Below are positions 57,287 through 58,213 of a stretch of 64,000 nt of DNA, one piece after another. Positions within the stretch are counted from its first letter, which is position 1. Every line of letters starts with the position of its first letter. Under the pieces are notes generated by a model. The model was not told the origin of the DNA and made no database searches. It saw only the letters and a program-made list of their open reading frames with translations. Source of the stretch: a virus. The stretch is from the UHGV virus genome UHGV-0070660. One strand, 5' to 3'. The position numbers were made by a program, and so were the translations under genes.

Positions 57287-58213
57287 TTATTAACCTCATT
57301 ACTGGTTGGGAAATAAGGTTGCGGTGCCGGGTGCCTCCCGGTGTCCTTTGGCTGGTTATCCACCGTGGACGGGGAAATAAGGAGAAATAATGGACAGATA
57401 TAACCATTTCCCCGCGTGCGCTTAGCCGCATTCACCGCAACGGAAAGAGCATTCCTGGTGGACCTGTAGATTGGGATATGAACCCGTTACAGGAGAATAC
57501 TCTTACCTGTTACGTGCTCCGTTTCGTGGAGCTAACGGCGGGTGATCGGGCCGCACCAGACTGGACTTATTTCAGCGTTATGCTCATGCCAGAGAATCAA
57601 ACTGTGATGGTCGGTGCTGAACTCCGACACAGGGTTGTAGCAAGCCCCGCAAAGCGCGCACTACTGTAGTTGCGGCACATCAGCCTGTGCATTCACCACA
57701 ATGTTGAGAACACTGGTTGTCACGCTGCAACGCAACATTTATTCGTAGATTGGGATATGACCCCGTTACGCCAGTGTTCTCAACGTTGTAGTGCCGGTTA
57801 CGGTTCCGGCCAGGCCTCTTCCTCAACGGGGGGTTCTCCATACGGACTACCGTTTATTGGTCGTTCCTGCGGTTTATGTTGTGAAGCCAGATGCTTATCT
57901 TCTGGTTGCTTCAAAGAGCTGCACTTCATCACAACGGTAAGAGCACTCGATGCATTTAAGCCAAGCCCCATAAGGGAGAATGCCCTTACCTGTTGTGTTG
58001 TGATGACCGGTGCTGATCTCCGGCTTGCGGTTATTTCAGACTCTCACGGGCGTTTAATTGCCCCGCCGAACAGCTCTTTTCCGCAATAGCTGCAATGTCT
58101 TTCGCGCATCAGCCTGCGCATTCATCACAACGGTAAGGGTACTTCGTAGGGATTCGAACCCTCTGCCAAGCTCGGCGATCTCCGACGTCGCAAAATACCC
58201 TTACCTGTTGTGC

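Follow-up and report, generated by a model that had tools for sequence, protein, structure and literature searches.

Five related hairpin units (E, A, B, C and D) were found on the minus strand of a P1-like phage-plasmid, in the leader of the C1-repressed Pban operon. They are members of a covarying RNA family, and a homologous hairpin in prophage Qin contains the position of a published RNase III cut in its stem. From the combined analysis we consider it rather likely that the units are RNase III processing cassettes, which would cut the Pban leader in P1 itself.

Hairpin units and their place in the Pban operon

The window (the whole stretch of 64,000 nucleotides analysed here, to which the coordinates refer) shows 99.5% identity to the P1-like phage JL22. 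The hairpins share the minus strand with the tRNA genes and tciA-ban. The P1 reference annotation lists Pban, trnA, trnT, tciABC, trnI and ban on this same strand, and the order in the leader is trnA-trnT, hairpins, tciABC-trnI-ban. By operator search and P1 annotation, the transcription unit starts at a bivalent C1 operator overlapping Pban (59025-59052, minus strand). The operator 17-mer is exact at 59036-59052 (minus strand), a second copy with 2 mismatches is located at 59025-59041 (plus strand), and the phage P1 counterpart is annotated as Obanab/P1ban. It is followed by a leader segment called 'dicF-like' in the P1 annotation (58883-58980, minus strand). Its Qin homologue (positions 2763-2859 of the Qin locus, L350; 83% identity over 100 nt) lies in the 5' part of the DicF precursor of 190 nt. 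The Rfam DicF model gave no match in this region of the window, even at E ≤ 10. The genes for tRNA-Asn(GUU) (trnA, 58292-58367) and tRNA-Thr(UGU) (trnT, 58214-58289), both on the minus strand, were called by ARAGORN and by the Rfam tRNA model (74.5 and 72.9 bits, respectively), and the 3' end of trnT is 4 nt from unit A. On the other side of the array, the first protein-coding gene is tciA (TerB-like, 56861-57286, minus strand; ORF list, P1 and JL22 annotation), followed by tciB, tciC, trnI (56511-56586, minus strand, ARAGORN) and ban. Between unit D and the tciA start codon there is an STnc100-like structured segment (57320-57439, minus strand) closed by GCGGUG/CACCGC. It overlaps the base of unit D and its ends are homologous to the Qin dicF-dicB leader. 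This segment is not a hairpin unit; it matches model positions 31-147 of 206 in Rfam RF02076 with 39.2 bits, below the gathering score of 47. The Pban leader is highly structured (927 nt, z -6.05).

Each unit consists of a stem of ~20 bp, with the arms CACAACAGGUAAGRG and CYCUUWCCGUUGYG, and a variable core inside. The main stems (helix P1 of each unit) are 19-25 bp long with one or two mismatches or bulges. Fold z-scores for units A to D were calculated against dinucleotide shuffles of the minus-strand RNA; the plus strand folded worse in every unit compared (A to D). Scores of the covariance model R1 (described below) are given for the 64-kb window. Unit E (58569-58653, minus strand; R1 24.5 bits, E 5e-5; -47.7 kcal/mol) is found upstream of the tRNA genes and has the long stem GGCACAACAGGUAAGGGCGCU / AGCGUCCUUUCCUGUUGCGUC with an extended irregular hairpin as its core. 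Unit A (58121-58214, minus strand; -51.3 kcal/mol, z -5.1; R1 17.3 bits, E 0.011) is a three-way junction of a long P1, the small hairpin UCGG-AGAUCG-CCGA and the T-arm-like hairpin AGGG-UUCGAAU-CCCU (58148-58162), which directly abuts the 3' strand of P1. A homolog of unit A in phage BUCT554 (85% identity) carries compensatory changes at the top of P1. Unit B (57925-57999, minus strand; -38.0 kcal/mol, z -4.3; R1 16.9 bits, E 0.014) has the common stem frame with a short core (CCC-UUAU-GGGG and GC-UUAAAU-GC). Unit C (57694-57793, minus strand; R1 37.7 bits, E 3e-9; -55.6 kcal/mol, z -6.0) is again a three-way junction, with a P1 of 23 bp, the conserved P2 tip ACGGGGUCAUAUCCCAAUC (57752-57764) and P3 formed by UGUUGCGU-UGCA-GCGUGACA. 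Unit D (57433-57516, minus strand; R1 42.3 bits, E 1e-10; -39.9 kcal/mol, z -2.6) has a P1 of ~19 bp with a bulged A and the P2 tip ACGGGUUCAUAUCCCAAUC (57473-57485), and it has no P3.

The original prediction of long imperfect hairpins with shared arms agrees with the inverted repeats found (57694-57716/57771-57793, 23 nt, 91%; 58132-58144/58193-58205) and with stable minus-strand folds. It had counted three hairpins; there are five. The fragment at 57460-57480 and the repeat at 57513, listed separately, form unit D, and the repeat at 58638 is the 5' arm of unit E. The repeat itself, described as a 15-mer present four times, is the 14-mer CCTTACCTGTTGTG, exact three times (57984, 58199 and 58638); the copy near 57499-57512 differs by more than 2 mismatches. 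Allowing up to 2 mismatches, CCTTACCTGTTGTG has 4 matches in the window versus 0.30 expected, and none of 100 shuffles reached 4. The spacing is irregular (196, 233 and 261 nt from start to start) and the repeats are inverted hairpin arms, so that a CRISPR array was correctly dismissed.

Small hairpins flank the units. On the 3' side of unit A the sequence UGAUGAAU is followed by GCGCA-GGCUGA-UGCGC (58104-58119, minus strand), a conserved 3' flank of units, and a covarying version, GCACA-GGCUGA-UGUGC, is located 3' of unit C (57675-57690, minus strand). In other phages the consensus UGGUGAAUGCGCAGGCUGAUGCGC is found 3' of many units. On the 5' side, a small GC hairpin, CCGG-AACCGUAA-CCGG, immediately precedes unit C (57794-57809, minus strand), with equivalents 5' of unit B (58007-58023) and unit D (57516-57532); a hairpin or terminator recurs upstream of units in other phages. 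The spacer between units A and B, including half-arms (57996-58137, minus strand), shows 98-99% identity to mEp460, IME207, 1720a-02 and other phages and is near-identical to lambdoid early-left leaders. Unit content differs among P1-like phages. Unit B is missing from the P1 reference genome, a C/D hybrid unit in SJ46 no longer forms the stem, and the apical hairpin of unit D is deleted in Ro157c2; the last two cases indicate that single units are dispensable. The tRNA content of the locus also varies among P1-like phages: Ro157c2 has an extra tRNA-Tyr, and P7 and D6 have a tRNA-Ser(UGA)-like gene.

A covarying RNA family and the RNase III site of prophage Qin

The covariance model R1 was built from lambdoid sequences alone and describes a three-way junction of P1, P2 (tip ACGGGNUCAUNNCCCAAUC) and P3. 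It recovered all five units, and the rest of the 64 kb had no site above 16 bits. Units E, A and B match R1 mainly via P1. Covariation support for the hairpins in related genomes was found in the lambdoid alignment, where 98.9% of the cells are paired versus 39-55% with slid partners. Double compensatory changes occur at eight pairs, and the observed value was reached in none of 500 shuffles. Pairs of the G.U type outnumber A.C on the transcribed strand (213 versus 24 in lambdoid relatives; 85 versus 19 in the P1-type frame). The compensatory changes and the bias for G.U over A.C indicate that the structure is formed by RNA. Covariation was assessed by an anchored count with a hand-set structure; in a mixed MAFFT alignment the subfamilies were shifted against each other, so that RNAalifold did not recover P1. 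The stem extends exactly 5 bp past a fixed 12-nt frame with covariation, and beyond that point pairing falls to chance level. The total of ~20-22 bp corresponds to roughly two helical turns.

The units located near tRNA genes all share the orientation of those genes (75 of 75). Among 5,426 complete E. coli genomes, 2,493 gave a match to a 211-nt stretch that contains a single lambdoid unit. The median is one place per genome, always in a leader context; the region upstream of yfdP in K-12 CPS-53 lacks the element. A genome-wide pattern of 15 specified bases gave mostly chance matches in unrelated phyla, and the matches that survived the model were from Enterobacterales only. Judged by these matches, the family is confined to Enterobacterales phages. 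The hairpin units matched no Rfam 15 family: searches of the window, mEp460 and 12 related loci, at gathering thresholds and at E ≤ 10, returned only tRNAs and sub-threshold STnc100. Sequence-string searches of the literature found no earlier description of the family or of the membership of the Qin hairpin, nor are these elements treated in the papers on the ST64B transcriptome and on ManS. It is apparently an undescribed, widespread phage RNA family.

An RNase III processing site has been reported upstream of dicF in the dicBF operon of the E. coli K-12 prophage Qin (Faubladier et al., 1990; Ragunathan et al., 2023). The Qin unit (L350 2672-2759) scored 18.8 bits with R1 (E 3e-4), has an identical layout of bulge and mismatch and is located 120 nt upstream of dicF. 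Its flanks are also homologous: Qin 2763-2859 corresponds to window 58980-58883 and Qin 2957-2984 to window 57439-57412. According to Ragunathan et al. (2023), RNase III cuts at 813/814 and yields the 190-nt DicF precursor. We placed this cut by arithmetic from the published lengths. Going 190 nt upstream from the DicF 3' end as annotated leads to L350 2746, and going 813 nt downstream from the likely dicBp start (TTGACC-17-TAATCT, ~1934-1938) leads to 2746-2750. Both estimates fall inside the 3' stem strand of the Qin unit (L350 2739-2758). The same authors report loss of the upstream ydfABC RNA in the absence of RNase III (Ragunathan et al., 2023), which fits a stabilising role of processing. 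The P1-type stems, ending 5 bp past the frame, have the length of about two helical turns (20 bp or more) looked for in an RNase III processing hairpin. The searchable literature yielded no transcript-end data for P1-like phages and nothing useful on the P1 ban operon or transcriptome. In line with the second of the two original readings, the region contains structured RNA in the tci-trnI-ban leader: the hairpins form a covarying family, are co-oriented with the operon and are homologous to the Qin hairpin with a mapped cut.

We propose the following scheme. The C1-controlled Pban would transcribe all five hairpins within an untranslated leader of ~1.7 kb. Each cassette would have three parts: first either a tRNA or a small hairpin with a protective role, then the ~20-22 bp stem, in which conserved arms enclose a variable apical core, and finally U(G/A)GUGAAU with another small hairpin behind it. 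Host RNase III would cut both strands of each long stem. The predicted products are the dicF-like 5' segment, a tRNA-Asn/tRNA-Thr precursor (left for RNase P and the other ordinary nucleases of tRNA maturation to complete), apical hairpin RNAs of ~50-70 nt released by excision, and a tciA-tciB-tciC-trnI-ban mRNA with a new 5' end just before a small hairpin. The flanking small hairpins may shield the new 3' and 5' ends, so that the cassettes would uncouple and stabilise the RNA segments of the operon and could affect tRNA or ban expression. If processing were the only task, however, five sites in 1.2 kb would seem more than are needed. The scheme would give a concrete account of how a mixed tRNA/small RNA/mRNA phage operon is dismantled post-transcriptionally. 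It would also join one mapped RNase III site, that of the DicF precursor, to a large family which Rfam lacks, making curation and direct testing possible.

Apical cores and alternative explanations

Since RNase III needs only the stem, cleavage leaves two features unexplained: the near-invariant ACGGGNUCAUNNCCCAAUC in units whose stems are fully diverged, and the enrichment of T-loops in the cores. These features are addressed by another explanation, possible but on balance doubtful, in which the stem is only a scaffold for excision or stability and the function is in the cores, released as small RNAs that mimic tRNA arms and act in trans. They might, e.g., regulate by base pairing, or serve to decoy or inhibit tRNA-directed nucleases or other host factors that bind tRNA. 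All 14 nt of the lambdoid tip CGGGCUCAUAACCC agree with the anticodon stem-loop of E. coli metZ, P2 and P3 covary, and UCAU with the GGG/CCC stem is retained across all subfamilies, which have entirely different P1 and P2. In the window, the tips of units C and D (GGG-GUCAUAU-CCC and GGG-UUCAUAU-CCC) have three G-C pairs and a 7-nt loop with U33 and CAU, resembling in sequence the anticodon arm of initiator tRNA. The resemblance is partial: the full 5-bp anticodon stem is absent, with the two lower pairs 27-43 and 28-42 mismatched (A.A and C.A), and loop positions 37-38 vary (AA, UC, UA, AU), including U instead of a purine at position 37 in the variants CUCAUUC (25) and CUCAUUA (6). T-arm mimics (stem of at least 4 bp, UUCRANN loop) occur in 5 of 38 core clusters versus 0.05 expected, and in none on the opposite strand. 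Among the window units only unit A has a canonical T-loop hairpin, and units B and E, which carry no tRNA-like feature, speak against this explanation. The single frame encloses at least 38 unrelated cores (first 154 instances), and units occur among phage tRNA genes and in early transcripts. As a group, the cores show no significant excess of structure over shuffled sequences (mean z -0.33), and complementarity searches gave no target: 72 cores searched against 4.2 Mb of related phage DNA matched only other units, and within the operon the best duplexes of the UCAU hairpin (-21 to -24 kcal/mol) were at the level of the shuffled best (-22). Together, the two kinds of conserved tip and the multitude of unrelated cores within a common scaffold point to a possible export of tRNA-mimicking small RNAs by phages. 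Extended further, the stem CAC-AACAGGUAAGAGCAUUG ... CAGUGCUCUUUCCGUUG-UGGUGAAU might be a general RNase III scaffold that delivers a hypervariable repertoire of small RNAs from early transcripts of temperate enterobacterial phages, with cores swapped by recombination between the arms; we regard this as a tentative idea with the odds against it. The phage groups concerned are P1-like, SfV/ST64B/Qin-type lambdoid and epsilon15-like phages. If true, it would describe a small-RNA arsenal, e.g., decoys or inhibitors for tRNA-targeting defence nucleases or tRNA-binding factors. The tips are relevant to a current question, namely what phages gain from tRNA genes and by what means they withstand defences that cleave tRNA.

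The presence of T-arm-like and anticodon-arm-like hairpins, and the variable tRNA content of the locus in Ro157c2, P7 and D6, could also be read as the decay of tRNA genes into debris without a function of its own. The T-arm-like GGGTTCGAATCCC noticed in the last hairpin is indeed present, within AGGGTTCGAATCCCT at 58148-58162, but the two other fragments described as T-arm-like (57473-57485 and 57752-57764) are GGG-[U/G]UCAUAU-CCC, i.e., anticodon-arm-like with U33 and CAU rather than a T-loop. What survives of the debris idea is the significant enrichment of tRNA-arm-like hairpins (T-loop and CAU anticodon-like loop) in the cores. As an explanation of the units it is largely refuted and very improbable. 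Using a tRNA test of at least 29 bits with the Rfam model or an ARAGORN call, only the three genuine tRNA genes were found, and ARAGORN and Rfam RF00005 at E ≤ 10 detected no tRNA in any unit. The long stems are conserved and covarying, 268 of 333 family loci (e.g., lambdoid leaders) have no tRNA genes nearby, and the 'acceptor-like' ACGAAGU of unit A is the 3' strand of its own stem and covaries with its 5' partner in BUCT554. Transcription-elongation signals, either nut-/put-like antiterminators or structure that keeps Rho off an untranslated leader, would suit leaders that are long, untranslated and highly structured, and lambdoid members are found in early-left leaders in which no plausible N-type ORF was seen. 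The 3' arm UGCUCUUU(C/A)C matches the rrn/lambda boxA core, and a conserved small hairpin follows 13-14 nt later in a boxA-boxB-like layout. This boxA-like stretch is paired in the 20-bp stem and covaries with its partner, and so would not be single-stranded; lambdoid units are directly 3' of a terminator-like hairpin and not 5' of it; and R1 finds nothing in the HK022 immunity region with putL and putR. A role in elongation is unlikely. Terminal inverted repeats of ~20 bp around variable cores, differences in unit content between related phages and the existence of hybrid units are features that DNA-level repeats (a MITE-like element, a recombination site or a single-strand origin) would share. 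Coding of the region for the proteins Upl and Plp, whose genes upl and plp are plus-strand annotations of the P1 reference, is the other form of this alternative. The copies are not dispersed (none elsewhere in 64 kb, and in E. coli genomes a median of one place), the excess of G.U over A.C indicates RNA made from one strand, and neither core inversion between the inverted arms nor any core in inverted orientation was seen. The upl and plp ORFs have no Pfam or NCBIfam match and are altered by unit gain and loss; as annotated, they are probably spurious. Such a DNA-level or coding role is highly unlikely. If the units are RNase III cassettes, ~1 kb of the P1 reference now assigned to the hypothetical genes upl and plp would become a structured, processed RNA leader.

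Comparison with known RNA elements

The closest counterpart is the Qin dicBF site, which shares the arm consensus, the bulge and mismatch layout and the flanks with the window units and likewise belongs to an untranslated part of an early prophage operon under repressor control. Qin carries a single unit, whose core is degenerate, whereas the window has five, interleaved with tRNA genes, and two of them have an anticodon-arm-like tip. Well-known RNase III sites include R0.3 to R1.3 in the early region of T7, the N-leader and sib sites of lambda, and the hairpin that releases tRNA metY from the metY-nusA-infB mRNA. They are long imperfect hairpins between RNA segments, and cutting leaves protective end hairpins. 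The metY hairpin separates a tRNA from a downstream mRNA, as proposed for the window units. In contrast to the units, these sites are not known to carry hypervariable cores or a conserved, covarying apical domain of several helices, and a relationship in sequence is not expected. The c4 RNA of P1/P7 and the CI RNA of P4 (Rfam C4, RF01695) are tRNA-like immunity RNAs excised from operon leaders. They recruit tRNA-processing enzymes and expose loops for pairing; RNase P is the enzyme that processes them, and complementary targets are known within their own transcript. The units differ in that the region has no C4 match at E ≤ 10 and no such target was found for them.

STnc100 and PasD are prophage sRNAs (Rfam RF02076; Zhu, Shabalina and Storz, 2026, preprint). 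The STnc100-like element is located directly 3' of unit D, has the UGGUGAAU start in common with the units and is found in the same lambdoid regions, beside tRNA genes. It differs from the units in having another structure, and with 39.2 bits it stays below the threshold of 47. HK022 put was compared by architecture and by an R1 scan; the cryo-EM paper gives no sequence. Like the units, it is a cis-acting structured leader RNA of a lambdoid early operon, and its two adjacent stem-loops resemble P2 and P3, but it has no closing stem and lies before terminators. With this different architecture and no R1 match at E ≤ 1 in HK022 24000-31000, it was rejected as a candidate. Three other candidates were discarded. 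An integron attC-like site is disfavoured by the poor fit of the core sites and the lack of an integrase, and a hammerhead ribozyme in GGCUGAUGCGCGAAAG by a missing stem II and the absence of an Rfam match. An attP core for a tRNA-fMet gene is at odds with the location and with P1 not being an integrating phage. The Correia repeats of Neisseria and the ERIC repeats of Enterobacteria are co-transcribed, RNase-processed hairpins of ~100-150 nt with terminal inverted repeats of ~20 bp. They are dispersed over many unrelated loci, whereas the units are confined to one type of phage leader.

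Hairpin units in the leader of the ban operon

The minus strand of the window carries five hairpin units, E (58569-58653), A (58121-58214), B (57925-57999), C (57694-57793) and D (57433-57516). The original prediction had described three imperfect hairpins, which are real, but the number was too low. Minus-strand RNA folds of units A, B, C and D gave -51.3, -38.0, -55.6 and -39.9 kcal/mol (z = -5.1, -4.3, -6.0 and -2.6), the plus strand of each hairpin folds more weakly in every case, and the folding z of the entire 927-nt leader is -6.05. The supposed fragment at 57460-57480 and the repeat at 57513 are not fragments and form a complete hairpin (unit D), and the repeat at 58638 belongs to unit E, as its 5' arm; this unit lies upstream of the tRNA genes. 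The 15-mer said to recur four times is a 14-mer with three exact copies and four matches at ≤2 mismatches (0.30 expected). GGGTTCGAATCCC is present in unit A as predicted; the other two pieces called T-arm-like are GGG-[U/G]UCAUAU-CCC hairpins and resemble an anticodon arm, not a T-arm. The original observation is real and under-counted, and its interpretation as structured RNA in the operon leader is upheld.

Window positions 57300-58700 show 99.5% identity to the P1-like phage JL22 and 99% identity to phage P1 where P1 has a counterpart. By the P1/JL22 annotation the equivalent P1 region is the C1-repressed ban operon (minus strand in the window), in the order Pban with a bivalent operator, 'dicF-like' region, trnA (Asn), trnT (Thr), about 900 nt, tciA, tciB, tciC, trnI and ban. 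On the minus strand we located the C1 operator at 59025-59052 (operator motif search), trnA at 58292-58367 and trnT at 58214-58289 (both by ARAGORN and Rfam), tciA at 56861-57286 (ORF list) and trnI at 56511-56586, which ARAGORN calls tRNA-Met(CAU) and the P1 annotation lysidine-dependent tRNA-Ile2. The C1 operator 17-mer ATTGCTCTAATAAATTT has 15 window sites at ≤3 mismatches (0.26 expected), among them 10237, 28751, 43222, 59036 and 62717, which fits the dispersed C1 regulon of P1.

The P1 annotation places two plus-strand ORFs, upl and plp, in the ~900-nt stretch between trnT and tciA. Their counterparts (57478-57669 and 57670-58089, plus strand) overlap units D, C, B and A in antisense orientation, gave no match in Pfam and NCBIfam searches, and are altered by unit gain and loss among P1-like phages. 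These ORFs are probably annotation artefacts. Between unit D and the tciA start codon, 57320-57439 (minus strand) matched the prophage sRNA family STnc100 with 39.2 bits (gathering score 47), and the ends of this segment are homologous to the Qin dicF-dicB intergenic leader. The helix that closes it, GCGGUG/CACCGC, shares positions with the base of unit D, and the two structures may therefore compete.

A conserved RNA family with tRNA-like tips

The 19-nt tip common to units C and D, ACGGGNTCATANCCCAATC, was found in more than 120 IMG/VR contigs. Most of them are lambdoid prophages in which the surrounding stems are wholly different in sequence and the architecture is identical: a closing stem P1 of ~21 bp, P2 and a variable hairpin P3. 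P2 consists of CCGGG/CCCGG, an internal loop and a GGG-CUCAUAA-CCC hairpin as cap. In a junction-anchored alignment of 104 distinct lambdoid sequences, 20 of the 21 P1-stem positions are Watson-Crick or G.U, with double compensatory changes (A-U/G-C, G-C/C-G and A-U/C-G). G.U outnumbers A.C by 213 to 24, which indicates that pairing holds only on the transcribed strand. When the structure was set by hand on an alignment of 28 sequences, 98.9% of cells were paired (39-55% with partners slid) and eight pairs had changed on both sides; none of 500 shuffles reached the observed values.

R1, a covariance model trained on lambdoid sequences alone, detected unit D with 42.3 bits (E-value 1e-10), C with 37.7, E with 24.5 (E-value 5e-5), A with 17.3 and B with 16.9; besides the five units nothing in the whole 64 kb scored above 16 bits. 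Rfam 15, searched with the window and the lambdoid loci at gathering thresholds and at E≤10, has no family matching the units, and a literature search by sequence string gave no match.

Although P1 and P2 have fully diverged between subfamilies, the tip ACGGGNUCAUNNCCCAAUC hardly changes. The 14-nt core of this tip, CGGGCUCAUAACCC, has the same sequence as the anticodon stem-loop of E. coli initiator tRNA (metZ); the likeness is partial, as the two pairs at the bottom of the stem are missing and the loop varies at positions 37-38 (CUCAUAA 88, CUCAUUC 25, CUCAUUA 6). Given the CAU anticodon of trnI, one operon holds a CAU-anticodon tRNA and two CAU-loop hairpin mimics. A search that used only the P1-type arms (AACAGGTAAGRG ... 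CYCTTWCCRTTG) gave 154 instances, whose 72 distinct cores, the variable parts enclosed by the stem, form at least 38 unrelated clusters (median pairwise identity 0.52, about chance). Three negative results speak against a general role of the cores: as a group they are not structured above shuffles, no inverted cores were found among the instances, and searches for complementary targets gave nothing above shuffle level in the operon for the tip hairpin and nothing but other units in 4.2 Mb of phage DNA for the cores. A canonical T-loop hairpin occurs in 5 of 38 core clusters (0.05 expected; 0 on the other strand). In unit A it continues straight into the 3' strand of the P1 stem, much as a T-arm runs into the acceptor stem of a tRNA. 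These features point at genuine tRNA-arm mimicry in the units. At the family level the picture appears to be new, combining a conserved stem for excision, a three-way junction that resembles initiator tRNA and a large number of unrelated cores.

The Qin homologue and probable RNase III processing

The E. coli K-12 Qin prophage carries one unit (NC_000913.3 1649171-1649258; 2672-2759 of the extracted region L350) about 120 nt upstream of dicF (R1 18.8 bits, E-value 3e-4), which agrees with the window units in arm consensus and in bulge and mismatch layout. Qin 2763-2859 is 83% identical to 58980-58883 (minus strand), the P1 'dicF-like region', whose counterpart is the 5' part of the 190-nt Qin DicF precursor, not mature DicF; Rfam DicF gave no match in this region at E≤10. 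Qin 2957-2984 matches the GGUGAAUGCGG segment directly after unit D, which makes the flanks homologous as well. In their account of DicF processing, Ragunathan et al. (2023), who confirm Faubladier et al. (1990), report that RNase III makes the 5' end of the 190-nt species by cutting between transcript positions 813 and 814, that this species is gone in an rnc mutant, and that the ydfABC RNA upstream disappears when RNase III is missing. The cut comes out at L350 2746 if 190 nt are measured upstream from the annotated 3' end of DicF, and at 2746-2750 if 813 nt are measured from the probable start of dicBp transcription (TTGACC-17-TAATCT). Both positions fall within the 3' stem strand of the Qin unit (2739-2758), so the only family member that has been studied by experiment is a site of RNase III processing.

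Pairing in the P1-type frame runs exactly 5 bp past the conserved 12-nt arm, with covariation, and then drops to chance level, giving a stem of ~20-22 bp or about two helical turns. This is the stem length that RNase III requires. Each unit is flanked 5' by a small GC hairpin, a terminator or a tRNA, and 3' by U(G/A)GUGAAU and a small hairpin that itself covaries (GCGCA-GGCUGA-UGCGC after A, GCACA-GGCUGA-UGUGC after C). RNase III would cut every unit stem and split the Pban transcript into four kinds of product, namely the dicF-like segment, the tRNA-Asn/Thr precursor, excised apical RNAs and the tciA-ban mRNA, whose new ends may be protected by the flanking hairpins. T7 early RNAs and the metY-nusA transcript follow the same logic, with flanking hairpins protecting the ends after cutting. 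RNase III processing of the operon leader is the best-supported function of the units and we consider it rather likely, although for P1 we infer the cleavage. The conserved tips, the many unrelated cores and the T-loop hairpins go beyond this reading, as RNase III needs the stem alone.

The proposal that the units are tRNA pseudogene debris is not supported: ARAGORN and the Rfam tRNA model speak against it, as does the unit A homolog of the epsilon15-like phage BUCT554, in which the T-loop hairpin is kept and the top of the P1 stem covaries. The idea was mostly wrong, but it points to the tRNA-arm mimicry. The units could also be nut-like sites, since their 3' arms (e.g., 57441-57450 and 57936-57945, minus strand) carry boxA-like UGCUCUUU(C)C or UGCUCUUACC, with a small conserved hairpin 13-14 nt further on; this stretch matches the boxA core known from rrn and from lambda nut sites. 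However, it is base-paired in the stem and covaries, the lambdoid units come after a terminator-like hairpin, and there is no relation to HK022 put, so that a nut-like role is possible but unlikely. A mobile or DNA-level element is unlikely as well, given the lack of dispersed copies and the strand specificity of the pairing.

Distribution, exchange and decay of the units

The lambdoid version is present in SfV, SfII, SfIV, ST64B, phage cdtI, mEp460 and many Stx2c phages, and a 211-nt stretch with the lambdoid unit has matches in 2,493 of 5,426 complete E. coli genomes. In the species-level genome collection, model-confirmed members are confined to Enterobacterales (Escherichia, Citrobacter, Enterobacter, Kosakonia, Atlantibacter, Phytobacter, Mixta and Yersinia) save one record labelled Chryseobacterium; the remaining pattern matches are chance. 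The units invariably lie on the transcribed strand of an untranslated leader, for example in the early-left leader of lambdoid phages (between the gene for the repressor and genes of the yfdP or rdgC type), beside lysis genes in a Yersinia prophage, in the promoter-proximal leader of BUCT554 and in the Pban leader of P1-like phages. All 75 units within 300 nt of a tRNA gene share its orientation, and units and tRNA genes abut directly in several phages. In the window the tRNA-Thr 3' end lies 4 nt before unit A, and in an IMG/VR contig (L353, unit 7034-7107) a tRNA-Arg(UCU) gene begins within 4 nt of the 3' arm.

The spacer between A and B is 98-99% identical to lambdoid leaders, which indicates that modules were exchanged between phage types. 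Phage P1 has units E, A, C and D; the window and JL22 additionally have B. Ro157c2 is without unit A, and its unit D (1614-1684 of its locus) has the GGGUUCAUAUCCC tip hairpin precisely deleted. In SJ46 (1634-1715) the 5' half of unit C is fused to the 3' half of unit D at the apical hairpin common to both, and the stem of this hybrid has lost its pairing. These two cases show recombination and decay inside the array. P7 combines a tRNA-Ser(UGA)-like gene with a unit whose core is unrelated. ARAGORN calls this tRNA, with a CCA end, between two units in P7 (1638-1724, minus strand) and at the same position in D6; it is missing from the Rfam tRNA matches at the gathering score and could be an unusual or decaying tRNA.

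Lambdoid units (mEp460, 2943-3000, and four further loci, L013, L020, L039 and L141) each stand immediately after a terminator-like GC-rich hairpin and U tract, and this U tract is able to pair with the conserved GGAGAAAC just 3' of the unit. In the lambdoid loci another hairpin, with a (U)GCAG loop, lies downstream. P3 often has a UUGCAG loop, or a UCCUAAC or CCUCCUA loop resembling the anti-Shine-Dalgarno sequence.
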